DNA from: a virus
Lineage: Duplodnaviria; Heunggongvirae; Uroviricota; Caudoviricetes
Direction: 5' to 3' (one strand)
Length of the DNA stretch: 8,661 nt
IMG/VR virus record: IMGVR_UViG_2713897161_000004
The position numbers and the translations under genes were made by a program. How positions within the stretch are numbered: the stretch's first letter is position 1; the number at the start of each line of letters is the position of its first letter. Shown here piece by piece: positions 1-8,661 of the stretch. The notes under the pieces are model-generated. The model worked only from the letters and a program-made list of their open reading frames with translations. It did no database searches and was not told where the DNA came from.

Positions 1-705
1 TTACATTTCAAAAACTCTGCTTACCAGGCGCATTTCGCCCAGGGGATCACCATAATAAAATGCTGAGGCCTGGCCTTTGCGTAGTGCACGCATCACCTCA
101 ATACCTTTGATGGTGGCGTAAGCCGTCTTCATGGATTTAAATCCCAGCGTGGCGCCGATTATCCGTTTCAGTTTGCCATGATCGCATTCAATCACGTTGT
201 TCCGGTACTTAATCTGTCGGTGTTCAACGTCAGACGGGCACCGGCCTTCGCGTTTGAGCAGAGCAAGCGCGCGACCATAGGCGGGCGCTTTATCCGTGTT
301 GATGAATCGCGGGATCTGCCACTTCTTCACGTTGTTGAGGATTTTACCCAGAAACCGGTATGCAGCTTTGCTGTTACGACGGGAGGAGAGATAAAAATCG
401 ACAGTGCGGCCCCGGCTGTCGACGGCCCGGTACAGATACGCCCAGCGGCCATTGACCTTCACGTAGGTTTCATCCATGTGCCACGGGCAAAGATCGGAAG
501 GGTTACGCCAGTACCAGCGCAGCCGTTTTTCCATTTCAGGCGCATAACGCTGAACCCAGCGGTAAATCGTGGAGTGATCGACATTCACTCCGCGTTCAGC
601 CAGCATCTCCTGCAGCTCACGGTAACTGATGCCGTATTTGCAGTACCAGCGTACGGCCCACAGAATGATGTCACGCTGAAAATGCCGGCCTTTGAATGGG
701 TTCAT
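1..705 (-). CDS. tnpA: IS26 transposase Tnp26 (DDE transposase, IS6 family), 234 aa, complete
   Basis: ORF track 1..723 minus; the protein from [66 protein letters not shown]... is the IS26 transposase. Real start is the ATG at 705 (MNPFKG); the MLMELH extension in the track is upstream read-through. Stop codon is at 1-3. Confidence 0.92.
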
Positions 706-754
706 GTGCAGCTCCATCAGCAAAAGGGGATGATAAGTTTATCACCACCGACTA

Positions 755-768
755 TTTGCAACAGTGCC
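755..768. repeat. IS26 14-bp terminal inverted repeat (plus strand TTTGCAACAGTGCC = reverse complement of GGCACTGTTGCAAA)
   Basis: Exact match to the known IS26 terminal repeat; marks the IS boundary at 768. Flanking 8 bp (769-776 CCATCCGT) would be the target-site duplication candidate. Confidence 0.85.
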
Positions 769-795
769 CCATCCGTTATCTGCGGAGGTGAGGCT

Positions 796-1011
796 ATGAA
801 ATCCATGGATAAGTTAACAACGGGCATCGCCTACAGCACCTCTGCAGGCAGTGCTGGCTACTGGTTTTTACAGTTGCTCGATAAAGTCACGCCCTCACAG
901 TGGGCGGCAATAGGTGTATTGGGTAGTCTGGTATTTGGCATGCTGACGTATCTGACAAATCTTTATTTCAAGATTAAAGAAGACAGGCGTAAGGCTGCGA
1001 GAGGAGAGTAA
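796..1011 (+). CDS. Phage holin, class II pinholin of the phage 21 S type (S21/EssD/EssQ-like), 71 aa, with dual-start motif
   Basis: Tail of ORF 178..1011: [71 protein letters not shown]. Two transmembrane segments: a Gly/Ala/Ser-rich SAR-like first segment and a hydrophobic second. Met1-Lys-Ser-Met4 dual start (antiholin/holin). RBS GGAGGTGAGG at 784-793. The part of the track ORF upstream of 796 is antisense to tnp26 and not coding. Confidence 0.85.
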
Positions 1012-1015
1012 TCCA

Positions 1016-1323
1016 ATGACTCAAGACTATGAACTGGTTGTGAAAGGAGTCCGTAATTTTGAGAATAAAGTTACGGTAACTGTAGCCTTACAGGACAAAG
1101 AACGCTTTGACGGTGAAATTTTTGGCCTGGATGTCGCCATGGACCGTGTTGAAGGAGCTGTGCTGGAGTTTTATGAGGCAGCAGCCAGAATGAGCGTCCG
1201 GCAAGTCTTCCTGGAAGTAGCAGAAAAATTGTCAGAAAAAGTTGAGTCTTATCTGCAGCATCAGTACTCCTTTAAGATTGAAAATCCTGCCAATAAGCAC
1301 GAGCGTCCTCATCATAAATATCT

Positions 1324-1327
<4 letters not shown>
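1016..1327 (+). CDS. ydfR: YdfR-like (DUF1327-type) conserved prophage protein of unknown function, 103 aa, sitting between holin and endolysin
   Basis: ORF 1016..1327, RBS GAGGAGAG at about 1000-1007, no predicted transmembrane segment, acidic. Stop TGA (1325-1327) overlaps the endolysin ATG (1324-1326) as ATGA. Length and position match my recollection of Qin-prophage ydfR; sequence identity not verified. Confidence 0.6.
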
Positions 1328-2350
<1,023 letters not shown>

Positions 2351-2533
2351 ATTAATATTAAATCGGATTATTTTTAGCGCTGAATGTGAAATTTAAATAA
2401 AAAGGACTCTTCCATGAGTCAAAATCCTTGAAATCTTAAGGGTAAGATAAAAGGTCATTAGACAGAATGACACGTTTTATTAATAAATAAAGCTATTGTT
2501 TCATTCGTGTGTTTTTCTTTACAAAAGTAATCC

Positions 2534-2562
2534 TTGCTATGGTTGGTTAATCATGCGTTAAT
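2534..2562 (+). promoter_or_regulatory. Candidate sigma70 promoter for the cold-shock gene (-35 TTGCTA 2534-2539, 17-bp spacer, -10 GTTAAT 2557-2562), with AT-rich UP-like region upstream
   Basis: Hexamers read directly; the arrangement resembles my recollection of the cspA promoter (TTGCAT / CTTAAT) and would give a 5' UTR of about 145 nt. Many alternative -10-like hexamers exist in this AT-rich DNA. Confidence 0.3.
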
Positions 2563-2713
2563 GGTGTTCTGGTTTGTTACAAAATTATCTGAAGCAGTCA
2601 TTGTTATAATTTTATTATTTGTACCTCTTGAGATTTCCTTGTTGGTTTTTCTTTCTGATATTTTTTTTCGGACCATTCTGCCCAAGGGCTAACTTCTTCA
2701 AAAGGTAATAATG

Positions 2714-2926
2714 ATGTCTAACAAAATGACTGGTTTAGTGAAATGGTTTAACCCTGAAAAAGGTTTTGGTTTCATCACGCCGAAAGATGGTAGCAAAGAT
2801 GTGTTTGTGCATTTCTCAGCTATTCAGAGCAACGATTTCAAAACGTTAACTGAGAATCAGGAAGTCGAATTTGGTATTGAGAACGGACCTAAAGGCCCTG
2901 CAGCTGTTCATGTAGTGGCACTTTGA
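2714..2926 (+). CDS. cspI: Cold-shock protein, CspA family (CspI-like), 70 aa
   Basis: ORF 2711..2926: (M)[70 protein letters not shown], with RNP1 (KGFGFI) and RNP2 (VFVHF) motifs. Start taken at the second ATG (2714) to give the family-typical MSNKMTG N-terminus; 2711 is also possible. SD AAGG at about 2701-2704. Confidence 0.85.
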
Positions 2927-4828: not shown

Positions 4829-5323
4829 ATGGATCGAGAGTTAAAAAATCTGACGCTGAATATCAGTCAACTGGCGGCATTGTCAGGTGTACATCGCCAG
4901 ACTGCTGCGGCAAGGCTGCAAAATCTACCCGTTGCAGGGGGGCATGAAAGCAACCTCAAGCTTTATCGGGTGGTTGATATTGTGTCGGCATTTCTGGCAT
5001 TACCACCGCCGGTTGCAGAAGGCGAAATGGACGCGCATGAGCGCAAAGCCTGGTATCAGTCTGAACGTGAGCGTCTTAAGTTCGAACAGGAAACGGCACA
5101 ACTCATTCCGGCCAGTGATGTCAGACGGGAGTTTGCCATCTGGGCAAAAGCGGTCGTGCAGGTGCTGGAGACATTACCGGATATTCTTGAACGTGACTGC
5201 GGTCTGCAGCCTGACGCTGTGAGCCGTGTTCAGTCCATTATTGATGATCTGCGCGATCAGATAGCCCTGCGGGTGACTGAAGCAGGTGCGGATGATGAGG
5301 AGGAATTACAGCAGGAGGAGTAA
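4829..5323 (+). CDS. Phage terminase small subunit (lambda Nu1-like DNA packaging protein), 164 aa
   Basis: ORF 4829..5323: N-terminal HTH-like segment (LTLNISQLAALSGVHRQTAAARLQNLP) comparable to the Nu1 N-terminus, acidic C-terminal tail, SD GGAG at 4819-4822. Stop TAA overlaps the large-subunit ATG as TAATG (5321-5325). Confidence 0.75.
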   Translation: MDRELKNLTLNISQLAALSGVHRQTAAARLQNLPVAGGHESNLKLYRVVDIVSAFLALPPPVAEGEMDAHERKAWYQSERERLKFEQETAQLIPASDVRREFAIWAKAVVQVLETLPDILERDCGLQPDAVSRVQSIIDDLRDQIALRVTEAGADDEEELQQEE

Positions 5324-6807
5324 TGCTGAATCAGGAAACCGCAAAGGCAGCACGAACCGATTCAGGTTATATCCTTCGCGCACCGAGACGAATGCGGGTT
5401 GCTGATGCCGTTGCTCAGTATATGCGGGTGCCCATGGGGGCAGGGAACTCAGTCCCGTGGGATCCGCTGGTGGCACCGTATGTTATTGAGCCTATGAACT
5501 GCCTGGCCTCGCGTGAATACGACGCAGTGATATTTGTTGGCCCGGCACGAACCGGCAAGACTATCGGCCTGATTGACGGCTGGGTGATTTACAACGTGAT
5601 TTGCGATCCTGCTGATATGCTGATCATTCAGATGACGGAGGAAAAAGCCCGCGAACACTCCAAAAAACGACTCGCCAGAACGTTTCGCGTCAGCCCGGAA
5701 GTGGTCAGTCGCCTGAGTCCGAACAAAAATGACAACAACGTTTATGACAGAACATTCCTTGCTGGCAACTACCTGAAAATCGGCTGGCCGTCAGTCAATA
5801 TCATGTCTTCATCAGATTATAAATGCGTGGCGCTGACGGATTATGACCGTTTTCCGGAAGATATTGATGGTGAGGGGGATGCCTTCTCTCTTGCCTCAAA
5901 ACGTACCACCACATTTATGTCCAGTGGTATGACGCTGGTGGAGAGTTCCCCCGGCAGGGATGTGAAGGATGTGAAATGGCGACGGACTTCACCGCATGAG
6001 GCTCCACCAACCACGGGGATCCTGTCGCTCTATAACCGTGGCGATCGCCGTCGCTGGTACTGGCCCTGTCCACACTGTGGTGAGTATTTTCAGCCCTGCG
6101 GCGATGTGGTTGCTGGTTTCCGTGATATTGCCGATCCTGTGCTGGCAAGTGAGGCGGCTTATATTCAGTGTCCTTCCTGTTCAGGACGGATTTTGCCTGA
6201 ACAAAAACGCGAGCTGAACGGACGTGGGGTCTGGTTACGGGATGGTGAATCCATCAATGCAGATGGCAGTCGTTATGGTGATCCCCGGCGTTCACGTATT
6301 GCGTCATTCTGGATGGAGGGTCCGGCAGCTGCTTATCAGACACTCTCGCAACTCGTTTACAAGCTGCTTACTGCAGAACAGGAATACGAGACAACCGGAA
6401 GTGAAGAGACACTCAAGACGGTTATCAATACCGACTGGGGATTACCTTATCTTCCCCGCGCCAGCATGGAGCAACGAAAAAGTGAATTGCTTGAGCAGCG
6501 GGCAGAGCCAGTTCCTTCCCGCAGTGTGCCGGATGGCGTTAATTTCCTTGTGGCGACAGTGGATGTGCAGGCGGGACGTCATCGCCGTTTTGTGGTTCAG
6601 GTAACGGGCTATGGCAGCCGTGGCGAACGCTGGATTATTGATCGTTACAACATCACGCAGTCATTGCGCGGTGACAGCGACGGGGAGAGCCAGCGAATTG
6701 ATCCGGCCAGCTACCGGAGTCGGAAGTTGCCGGACCCTGCAGATGAAGGCGCATTACAGAAATGGAGGTCTGTTCTACCGTTCTTCAAGAGATGGCTATG
6801 GTTTTGA
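5323..6807 (+). CDS. Phage terminase large subunit, lambda GpA family, C-terminally truncated (494 codons versus about 640 in lambda gpA)
   Basis: ORF 5323..6807: Walker A P-loop GPARTGKT, Cys cluster [10 protein letters not shown]...CPSCSG (cf. lambda ACPHCGEEQY), and [32 protein letters not shown] (cf. lambda IDSQLDRYEMRVWGWGPGEESWLIDRQII). The ORF ends about 60 codons after this motif with an unrelated tail (...[16 protein letters not shown]), and tail-fibre sequence follows. Confidence 0.85.
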
Positions 6808-7378
6808 GGAAGACTGGGCAGAAGTTTATACCTCGAAAAATCTTCCACCAGAAAGCTACCCAGTCGGCGCACCAATCCCGTGGCCATCAGATACCGTTCC
6901 GTCTGGTTATGCCCTGATGCAGGGGCAGACTTTTGACAAATCTGCCTACCCGAAACTTGCTGCCGCTTATCCGTCAGGCGTGATCCCTGATTTGCGTGGC
7001 TGGACGATTAAGGGCAAGCCCGCCAGTGGTCGAGCCATATTGTCTCAGGAACAGGACGGCATTAAATCGCACACCCACAGCGCCAGCGCATCCAGTACGG
7101 ATTTGGGTACGAAAACCACATCGTCGTTTGATTACGGCACTAAATCCACGAATAACACCGGGGCGCATACCCATAGTGTTAGCGGTACGGCTGCTTCAGC
7201 CGGTGCACATACCCATTCGATGACATTTGTTTCAGGTGGTTCCAGTGGTGCTCCGGGAAGTGGAGCATCTGATTATTCTAAATACAGTGTTAACACTTCT
7301 TCTGCAGGCGCTCATACGCACTCTGTATTCTTGCTACGGAACATTTCAGTGACTGGGGATATTATGAGGTCAACTTAA
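6743..7378 (+). pseudogene. Side tail fibre protein (lambda Stf-like) C-terminal fragment; supported homologous core about 6857-7326
   Basis: Frame of ORF 6611..7378: [121 protein letters not shown]..., cf. lambda Stf [96 protein letters not shown]...[11 protein letters not shown]. No N-terminal part; ends in out-of-frame ydfI-like sequence ([16 protein letters not shown]). Confidence 0.75.
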
Positions 7379-8661
7379 TCGGCGGCGAACAGCAAATTGC
7401 CGATTTACAACAGCAAGATAATCTTTATACCGTTGCGGAAATGTCGGCCGACGCGTGGACGGCTCGCGTCGTTGGCGTCGTTAAAAAAGCCTTGCACGTA
7501 CAAATAGATGGCTTAGAAACCGTGCTGGCTGCGATGTGTGAACCGCAAATTGCGATTGTCTCTCTGACAATCACCGAAAAAGGGTATTTCCACTCTCCGG
7601 CGACCGGACAGTTAATGCTCGATCACCCGATGGTCGCTGCCGACGTGCAAAATCCCCACCAGCCGAAAACAGCAACAGGGGTGATTGTTGAGGCGCTGGC
7701 TCGCCGTAAAGCGGCAGGACTTCCCGCATTTACCGTCATGTCATGTGACAACATGCCAGAAAACGGTCATGTTATGCGTGACGTTGTCACTTCCTACGCA
7801 CAAGCCGTTGATGTAAAACTGGCACAATGGATCGAAGATAACGTGACTTTCCCATCAACAATGGTGGACCGTATTGTGCCCGCAGTGACAGAGGATACGC
7901 TGGCGAAAATCGAACAACTTACCGGTGTGGGCGATCCTGCGGGCGTTGCCTGTGAACCTTTCCGCCAGTGGGTAATAGAAGATAACTTTGTTGCCGGACG
8001 TCCGGAATGGGAAAAAGCGGGAGCCGAACTGGTTAGCGATGTGCTGCCTTATGAAGAGATGAAGTTGCGCATGCTCAACGGCAGTCATTCATTCCTGGCG
8101 TATCTGGGGTATCTTGCAGGATATCAGCACATTAATGACTGTATGGAAGATGAACAATATCGTTATGCGGCGTATGGCTTGATGTTGCAGGAACAAGCGC
8201 CGACGTTGAAAGTGCAGGGCGTTGATTTGCAAGATTACGCTAACCGATTAATTGCACGCTATAGCAACCCGGCGTTACGTCATCGAACCTGGCAGATTGC
8301 GATGGATGGTAGCCAGAAATTGCCACAGCGGATGTTGGATTCTGTTCGCTGGCATCTGGCGCATGACAGCAAGTTCGATCTGCTGGCGCTGGGCGTCGCG
8401 GGTTGGATGCGTTATGTCGGTGGTGTTGATGAACAGGGAAATCCGATAGAAATCAGTGACCCACTGTTACCTGTTATTCAGAAGGCTGTACAAAGTAGTG
8501 ACGAAGGGAAAGCGCGCGTCCAGTCATTGCTGGCGATTAAGGCGATCTTTGGTGATGATTTGCCAGACAATAGTTTGTTTACTGCAAGAGTGACGGAAAC
8601 GTACTTGTCTTTATTAGCGCATGGCGCGAAAGCGACCGTGGCAAAATATTCCGTGAAGTAA
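7327..8661 (+). pseudogene. ydfI: Mannitol dehydrogenase family oxidoreductase (YdfI/UxuB-like), 5'-truncated: homology begins in-frame at about 7327, first available start is ATG 7441 (406-aa ORF), C-terminus complete
   Basis: ORF 7441..8661; in-frame upstream codons 7327-7440 read [38 protein letters not shown] with no start codon, and a TAA at 7291-7293 closes the frame. This matches the family region after the N-terminal NAD-binding motif (cf. UxuB ...DWGICEVNL...LYTVAE), so the Rossmann GxGxFxRAH segment is absent. Confidence 0.75.

Follow-up and report, generated by a model that had tools for sequence, protein, structure and literature searches.

We analysed a stretch of 8,661 nucleotides of viral DNA (Duplodnaviria; Heunggongvirae; Uroviricota; Caudoviricetes; IMG/VR record IMGVR_UViG_2713897161_000004), hereafter the window, and in particular an open reading frame (ORF) at positions 1016-1327 of its plus strand which lies between a holin gene and an endolysin gene. 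This gene is the already known ydfR of a decayed Escherichia coli Qin-type lambdoid prophage, and the conserved part of its product is only a beta-beta-beta-helix domain of approximately 72-75 residues (DUF1327). An earlier note on this DNA had proposed YdfR as a candidate regulator or accessory factor of lysis. Our best reading, which we hold with moderate confidence, is that YdfR is a late-operon accessory (moron-type) protein which would bind a cytoplasmic partner via its conserved core. YdfR most likely stands outside the lysis machinery: a dedicated lysis role is unsupported, and the balance of evidence across the family is unfavourable to it.

The ydfR ORF begins with ATG and comprises 103 codons. 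Its product matches the Pfam family PF07041 (DUF1327) over profile positions 1-93 of 93 (E = 3.7e-51, 171.7 bits, against a gathering cut-off of 25 bits) and contains the conserved core of approximately 72 residues with the Y/F-Y-E motif of this family. Because 100 of the 103 residues (97%) are identical to those of K-12 YdfR (b1555, UniProt P76160), the ORF corresponds to a named, catalogued gene of unassigned function; the three substitutions, D37G, A49V and R59M, are all non-synonymous. Orthology to K-12 ydfR is supported both by this near-identity and by a shared gene neighbourhood between rspB and ydfI, with the gene order essQ/essD-ydfR-rrrQ-rzpQ-cspI-ynfQ-ynfN-gnsB common to the window and K-12. 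Codons 1-72 are under purifying selection, with dN/dS values of 0.2-0.35 in well-aligned pairs, and alignment of the core with homologues of other genera (22-40% identity) required no gaps. Judged by its sequence, ydfR is a real gene and not a chance ORF. The earlier note had described a soluble, acidic protein of 103 amino acids encoded between holin and endolysin, and we confirmed this, with every element at the position it gave. Its author knew of no assigned function for the family, and the databases, which name it "DUF1327" or "YdfR family protein", indeed give none.

Conservation is restricted to the N-terminal part of the protein. Homologues from Escherichia share a block of approximately 75 residues, followed by mutually unrelated tails which give total lengths of 103, 104, 114, 116, 129, 176, 183, 243, 268 and 287 amino acids; some of these length variants are plain frameshift read-throughs. 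Similarly, five PHROG families resemble each other only across their first 76-99 residues. In an alignment of 24 sequences (22-88% identity), M1, Y53 and E54 are invariant and residues 1-72 are free of gaps in nearly all rows. AlphaFold2, run with a deeper alignment, modelled residues 1-70 with block means of 82-96 for the predicted local distance difference test (pLDDT), as antiparallel strands at 5-14, 18-27 and 34-43 and a long helix from residue 50. The pLDDT then drops to 79 at residues 71-80 and to 54, 43 and 37 in the following blocks, with values below 50 at residues 88-90 and 93-103. The protein has an isoelectric point of 5.55, which falls to 4.6 when residues 1-75 are taken alone, and the core is acidic in nearly all family members. 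Our definition of this core may be new.

YdfR reads as a cytoplasmic protein with no membrane or export signal. Its highest 19-residue Kyte-Doolittle window is 0.80, so that it has no hydrophobic segment, its grand average of hydropathy is -0.50, and of the features of membrane-type lysis proteins (transmembrane segment, signal-anchor-release (SAR) domain, signal peptide and lipobox) none was found in it. The earlier note had suggested structure prediction and a fold search; the core could be modelled, but no confident match to any function, lysis or other, was obtained. Foldseek comparison of the model to PDB and BFVD gave no match at an E value of 1e-3 or better, and the DUF1327 profile matched no PDB sequence. 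A resemblance of the core to RNA-binding folds (dsRBD-like and RNase H-like folds were considered) was too weak for use, and a HicB-like antitoxin fold, a further candidate, was supported by no search.

Outside Escherichia the family is found mainly among tail genes. When 1.84 billion representative proteins were searched exhaustively with the DUF1327 profile, only 87 matches were returned, approximately 14 of which are diverged stand-alone proteins of 71-94 amino acids that span the entire core. Distant stand-alone homologues of 72-76 amino acids include gp24 of Salmonella phage ES18, and close relatives of the diverged proteins are the DUF1327 proteins of Sodalis ligni, Serratia sp., Yersinia mollaretii, Yersinia bercovieri and Cronobacter malonaticus. 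One tail-slot homologue is at least 90% identical to a protein of Pantoea piersonii, and Pantoea is probably also among the hosts. Tail-gene clusters hold 11 of the 13 diverged homologues with readable context (Table 1), and DUF1327 subtypes group according to context, with one clade in the lysis region and another among tail genes. According to the earlier note, homologues lying mostly outside lysis cassettes would speak against a role in lysis; this is what we found for the diverged homologues, but the Escherichia loci are still linked to the holin. The inserts in tail clusters have a GC content of 0.36-0.43, compared to 0.46-0.57 for the locus or flanks, with only a mild difference in the window (ydfR 0.433, holin 0.468, endolysin gene R 0.507). 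The annotation of ES18 describes gp24 and the antisense gp25 as "possible moron; function unknown" and marks putative terminators around them. DUF1327 genes thus show the presence or absence between conserved neighbours, the use of several slots and the deviant base composition of morons. The tail-operon branch with its convergent partners may be new. The alignment of diverged homologues contained no stretch conserved enough for pattern-based locus scans. It should also be noted that in cassettes with a PF16080 holin (L106, 4001-4517) the DUF1327 gene is called as two overlapping ORFs of 72 and 107 amino acids, both matching PF07041, which suggests a frameshifted long form.

Within Escherichia, a ydfR homologue begins exactly 4 nt after the stop codon of an S21-type holin gene in all 92 loci with upstream sequence, which were drawn from species-representative genomes, IMG/VR contigs and deposited phages. 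The offset was 8 nt in every phage record listed in both our holin and our ydfR search tables. The reverse association is far weaker: among deposited phage genomes the S21-type holin was found in 438 and ydfR in 100, so that approximately 77% of the records with this holin lack ydfR and approximately 23% carry it. The earlier note had put forward co-occurrence of the gene with pinholin/SAR-endolysin pairs across S-R intergenic regions as a check of its proposal. With these counts, and with homologues also found elsewhere, no two-way co-occurrence was seen across the family. In cassettes without ydfR, R fills the same slot, with the GGAGAG-TAA-N4-ATG geometry that ydfR has elsewhere, in the P27 and 933W type; in phage 434, R overlaps S by 1 nt with no ydfR between them. 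Phages 434 and P27, with R directly after S, bear out the statement that the canonical S-R-Rz cassette has no such gene. A survey of complete E. coli genomes detected ydfR-like DNA in 3647 of 5426. A scan of species-representative genomes with the Escherichia-type motif LEFYEA found Escherichia and Shigella only, and is uninformative on the diverged branch. Two metagenome-assembled genomes, assigned to Veillonella parvula (L007) and Bacillota (L009), contain Escherichia-type S21-ydfR-R cassettes with 96% and 83% identity to the window protein, and these are probably mis-binned Escherichia DNA. In an IMG/VR contig (L041, 4446-5757), an insertion of approximately 1.3 kb breaks the endolysin gene 3' of ydfR, which is a further independent loss of R beside an intact ydfR.

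The earlier note had also taken the overlap of ydfR with the endolysin gene to imply co-expression at lysis. The overlap itself is real, the ydfR stop codon TGA (1325-1327) overlapping the endolysin ATG (1324-1326), but this ATGA arrangement is particular to the 103-amino-acid form. The ydfR-R junction is a gap of 50-55 nt in BP-4795 and mEp460; other cassettes, Stx2-86 among them, have several hundred bases there, including an antisense ORF. Window positions 1016-1313 (codons 1-99) are collinear with three long-form cassettes (L088, L091 and L009) at approximately 90% identity; past 1313/1314 the alignment skips 580-775 nt and resumes approximately 10 nt before the start of R. The skipped segment contains the C-terminal extension of the long ydfR and an antisense gene (phrog_2572). 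Most simply, the 103-amino-acid ydfR would be a deletion derivative of a longer cassette, if the direction of change is as we infer, with its final codons and stop supplied by sequence that elsewhere forms the endolysin leader. On this reading, the apparent wiring of ydfR to R would be a by-product of the junction in one variant and not an evolved feature of the family. This origin of the overlap may be new.

The antisense gene is a recurrent companion. At most non-Escherichia loci and in many Escherichia cassettes, a small antisense ORF lies tail-to-tail directly 3' of the DUF1327 gene, with the stop codons ranging from overlapping by 59 nt to 49 nt apart; the window copy has no such partner. 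These partners belong to at least eight unrelated families. The ES18 gp25-like family phrog_10490 is found beside DUF1327 at the M/L, GT/TMP and I/J slots (Table 1), phrog_18578 at the L/K slot and after Rz, and phrog_2572 behind two different holin families. As the same partner families occur in different slots, either the two genes travel together or the cargo is swapped beside DUF1327. No co-phylogeny of DUF1327 subtypes with partner families was seen. Pfam gave no match for 13 antisense partner proteins or for the long C-terminal extensions, and PADLOC gave none for YdfR and, for nine antisense partners, a single weak match (E = 7.8e-4). Members of phrog_10490 have 91-95 amino acids (L114 5233-5520, which is ES18 gp25; L102 5244-5519; L101 335-616; L118 3744-4025), occupy tail-operon slots in Salmonella, Serratia and Yersinia phages and have no PADLOC or Pfam match. 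The two phrog_18578 members, at L098 4967-5515 and in Cronobacter (L109, 4269-4829), have 182-186 amino acids and are 42% identical; weak relatives of this family occur in Mannheimia, Pasteurella and Acinetobacter phages.

In the literature searched, only Gopel et al. 2026 (PMC13232886) treated YdfR in depth. In a two-hybrid screen with RNase G, the paralogue of RNase E, as bait, residues 1-72 of K-12 YdfR were isolated, and this clone gave stronger signals with RNase E constructs containing the catalytic domain (PMC13232886). In the same study the eluate of Strep-tagged YdfR contained Rne(1-598), YdfR overproduction left growth unimpaired, and K-12 ydfR was essentially untranscribed in standard growth conditions (PMC13232886). 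The interacting part, residues 1-72, coincides exactly with the conserved core as we define it.

Taken together, these data are consistent with DUF1327 being a mobile accessory gene, probably of moron type, which lambda-like prophages of Enterobacterales carry on their late-gene strand. In Escherichia it would have become fixed 4 nt behind the S21-type holin and in other genera in tail slots or, in Cronobacter, behind Rz, usually tail-to-tail with a variable antisense cargo gene; a deletion in a long cassette carrying long ydfR and the antisense gene would have created the ATGA overlap. Lying within the late lysis transcription unit, ydfR would be expressed late, and YdfR made together with lysis and virion proteins. 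Its N-terminal domain may then bind a cytoplasmic partner, the sole experimentally backed one being the catalytic half of host RNase E, for the K-12 orthologue. Binding to RNase E and the co-purification of RNA suggest a possible effect on RNA turnover late in infection.

A number of observations weigh against the reading of YdfR as a late-operon accessory protein. The RNase E link comes from one study only, in which the two-hybrid signal of full-length YdfR was confined to Rne1-597, few transcripts changed on YdfR overproduction, and the Strep-YdfR eluate was rich in DNase-resistant nucleic acid, of which the authors caution that a contaminant may be the source (PMC13232886). An acidic domain is also atypical for an RNA binder. 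For ydfR in the window, neither a promoter nor a terminator of its own was found, and in this respect it falls short of the classical moron. The long forms might in principle have gained their extra length at 1313/1314 by insertion, an origin which would require in-frame extension of the ORF. Linkage of ydfR to the S21-type holin is absolute in Escherichia, which leaves room for a lysis-linked role in that clade. Finally, the Keio deletion of ydfR was a hit in a screen for envelope leakiness with chlorophenol red-beta-D-galactopyranoside (CPRG), in which essQ, rrrQ and rzpQ were not listed (Paradis-Bleau et al. 2014).

One alternative is that DUF1327 and its partner form a two-gene "noncontiguous operon" moron, in which DUF1327, made only in lytic growth, would neutralise an antisense cargo expressed in the lysogen (for example for defence or exclusion), in the manner of the Tai/Ati pair of phage phi80; the ydfR of the window would then be an orphan left after deletion of its cargo. 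We consider this possible but rather unlikely. It would explain why a convergent antisense ORF so often lies directly downstream, why antisense families travel with DUF1327 between slots and why the window form is missing exactly the segment which bears the antisense gene, and the literature offers a precedent in which an antisense defence gene is combined with a counter-defence gene on the late strand (PMC11364771). However, at least eight unrelated partner families beside one conserved DUF1327, with no co-phylogeny, speak against neutralisation between cognate proteins. Copies without a partner are common and remain under purifying selection, none of the partners corresponds to a defence family in PADLOC, and the presumed AtiEcA is not a DUF1327 protein (-1.8 bits) and the presumed TaiEcA is unrelated to the partners.

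A second alternative, in line with the earlier note, is that YdfR translated from the holin-endolysin mRNA tunes the triggering of the pinholin or restrains the SAR endolysin before lysis, which we regard as improbable. Its position in the late unit and the invariant 4-nt spacing behind the holin in Escherichia do stand, the 103-amino-acid form has its translational overlap with R, and the lysis-region clade of DUF1327 keeps near lysis genes in three arrangements. A dedicated role beside pinholin and SAR endolysin is not borne out: phage 21-type cassettes (S21/R21) lyse without ydfR, and most phage records with the same holin do not carry it. Homologues are found after other holin families or after Rz, and most of the diverged ones are in tail operons. 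YdfR has no membrane segment, and the overlap with R reflects a difference in junction length, most simply a deletion. The CPRG hit for ydfR, with its lysis neighbours not listed, favours a lysis role, but the kanamycin cassette could have produced it through polarity on rrrQ. Overproduction of YdfR caused no growth defect (PMC13232886).

A third alternative concerns this copy alone, namely that it is a functionless remnant whose ORF has survived only because the prophage decayed recently. The decay is evident. The part of the window compared by megablast, 769-2400, is 100% identical to the chromosome of E. coli strain ET881, where the region between rspB and ydfI is annotated as essD-ydfR-rrrQ (frameshifted)-rzpQ-cspI-ynfQ-ynfN-gnsB, followed after gnsB by DUF1441, a truncated terminase, a tail-protein fragment and a truncated ydfI. 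Divergence from ET881 upstream starts exactly at the end of an IS26-type insertion sequence, whose repeat GGCACTGTTGCAAA is present as its reverse complement at 755-768 and which stops 27 bp before the holin ATG, in place of the native upstream region. As this element took over the upstream region, the cassette is severed from its Q-dependent late promoter. The endolysin gene rrrQ has lost one A from an A5 run at ~1503-1506 (mapped against an intact copy), yielding two ORFs at 1324-1524 and 1467-1856, and the identical ET881 copy is called "frameshifted" by PGAP. The lysis cassette in the window is therefore non-functional, owing to the upstream IS26 and the endolysin frameshift.

Such decay, including the truncated terminase fused to tail-fibre and ydfI fragments, would fit a remnant, as would the facts that all three changes relative to K-12 are non-synonymous, that D37 is nearly invariant among Escherichia homologues and that K-12 ydfR is essentially untranscribed in standard growth (PMC13232886). 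On the other hand, ydfR is intact and is the best-conserved segment in a mosaic divergence from K-12 Qin (window 796-2350 compared to L117 3531-5086): 3 of 312 positions differ in ydfR (1%), compared to 29 of 216 in the holin gene (13%), 30 of 498 in Rz (6%) and 19 of 533 in the endolysin gene. Three changes are too few to prove relaxed constraint, and purifying selection acts on the family at large. We think it unlikely that the copy is a mere remnant. Lastly, an improbable further reading is that DUF1327 serves as the general late-strand component of a mobile two-gene "noncontiguous operon" moron in lysis and tail regions of lambda-like prophages. Produced only in lytic growth, it would act through RNase E and RNA on the overlapping transcript of a convergent lysogen-expressed cargo, silencing or processing it, or would shield the late transcript from collision. 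This would be a cargo-independent self-protection, with solo ydfR genes as its orphans.

The genes flanking ydfR are listed in Table 1. The window holin retains the dual start Met1/Met4 and ends 4 nt before the ydfR ATG, and its counterpart in phage 434 is annotated as antiholin S71/holin S68. The rrrQ-type endolysin has a Gly/Ala-rich N-terminus (MNTKIRYGLSAAVLALIGAGASA) which appears SAR-like. Within window positions 700-2750 no promoter-like site was found, including between holin and Rz, and the sole terminator-like site is on the minus strand downstream of Rz, with none between holin and Rz. Among the matches listed, the rrrQ frameshift allele was found in 2 genomes at 100% identity, and the others were one base longer with the gene intact. 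Just 3' of the lysis cassette, a cspI-type cold-shock gene (coding sequence 2711-2926) is accompanied by a match to the Rfam cspA thermoregulator at 2567-2972 (111 bits, gathering score 78), which covers the 5' leader and coding region of cspI. Further downstream (5323-8661), a terminase large subunit gene without its 3' end is joined to a tail-fibre fragment (~6611-7378) and a 5'-truncated ydfI of the mannitol-dehydrogenase family (7441-8661), a large deletion having taken out the entire virion module.

Table 1. Features of the window around ydfR (window coordinates) and slots occupied by DUF1327 genes at other loci (designations beginning with L are our own locus handles).
Feature	Position or locus	Strand	Basis or remark
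IS26-type insertion sequence end (DDE transposase ORF 1-723; terminal inverted repeat 755-768)	1-768	-	Pfam DDE_Tnp_IS240, E = 2.5e-48
S21-type (class II, pinholin-type) holin, 71 amino acids	796-1011	+	PF04971, E = 2.3e-34; PHROG holin families
Shine-Dalgarno sequence AGGAG for ydfR	1002-1006	+	9 nt 5' of ATG, within the 3' end of the holin gene; by sequence reading
ydfR codons 1-75, conserved DUF1327 core	1016-1240	+	PF07041, alignments, AlphaFold2, dN/dS
ydfR codons 76-103 and stop, variable low-confidence tail	1241-1327	+	non-homologous tails, low pLDDT
rrrQ-type endolysin pseudogene (phage lysozyme)	1324-1856	+	PF00959 on both fragments
Rz-type i-spanin (rzpQ, DUF2514)	1853-2350	+	PF10721, E = 3.6e-38; PHROG 312 Rz-like spanin
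Putative Rz1-type o-spanin (rzoQ), embedded, +1 frame, lipobox LTSC	2046-2300	+	ORF 2004-2300; K-12 rzoQ position transferred
DUF1327 slot between tail-chaperone genes and tape-measure gene (GT/TMP)	Serratia, L102		
DUF1327 slot between gpM-like and gpL-like genes (M/L)	L096, L110, L113, Salmonella phages ES18 and Oslo		
DUF1327 slot between gpL-like and gpK-like genes (L/K)	L098-L100		
DUF1327 slot between gpI-like and gpJ genes (I/J)	Yersinia bercovieri L118/L119, and L120		
DUF1327 slot directly before gpL	Sodalis, L104		
DUF1327 slot after Rz, before terminase genes	Cronobacter, L109		
DUF1327 slot after a different holin family, PF16080	L106-L108		

The gene matters chiefly through its distribution, as ydfR-like DNA is found in 3647 of the 5426 complete E. 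coli genomes and also in many Stx-converting phages with no function assigned. Because the relatives are moron-like in tail operons, usually with a convergent antisense gene, the useful tests are those of host RNA metabolism or of prophage cargo control, and not those of lysis timing. If either the RNase E link or the convergent-pair idea is true, DUF1327 would represent a widespread temperate-phage device acting on host RNA decay or on lysogen-expressed cargo; if neither is true, ydfR is here an ordinary, already catalogued gene of unassigned function in a dead prophage.

Compared to known systems, the window is closest to the Qin prophage of K-12, with which it shares the gene order essQ-ydfR-rrrQ-rzpQ-cspI, the ATGA overlap and the chromosomal region. 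It differs from K-12 Qin in its frameshifted rrrQ, the IS26 upstream and a holin allele which is 13% different at the DNA level. ES18 gp24 is likewise a small acidic protein encoded on the late strand with the DUF1327 core (profile E = 8e-21), but it is only approximately 25% identical, lies between gpM-like and gpL-like tail genes, has a convergent partner and lacks a C-terminal tail. In the Tai/Ati system of phi80, the lysogen expresses a defence gene in antisense, and protection of the phage itself falls to a small gene on the late strand (He et al. 2024, PMC11364771). TaiEcA/AtiEcA resembles the DUF1327 relatives in having a small Q-dependent late-strand gene beside an antisense gene, near the junction of lysis and packaging genes; the phi80 pair is divergent, whereas the DUF1327 pairs are convergent and the window copy is partnerless. 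With the phi80 ORFs taken as AtiEcA and TaiEcA by size and position, homology was rejected for both, the 76-amino-acid late-strand ORF scoring -1.8 bits against the DUF1327 profile in hmmsearch and the 204-amino-acid antisense ORF being unrelated to the DUF1327 partners. The flanking genes of the window are of the S21-R-Rz type of phages 21, 434 and 933W, in which R directly follows S (1-nt overlap in 434, 4-nt spacer in P27) and no intervening gene is needed. Precedents for a phage gene acting on RNase E would be T7 gp0.7, phiKZ Dip and T4 Srd. YdfR has no homology to these modulators or to RapZ, Pfam giving DUF1327 only. Like RapZ, the K-12 protein is reported to give two-hybrid signals with Rne constructs, and it was recovered with Rne(1-598) in an affinity eluate (PMC13232886).

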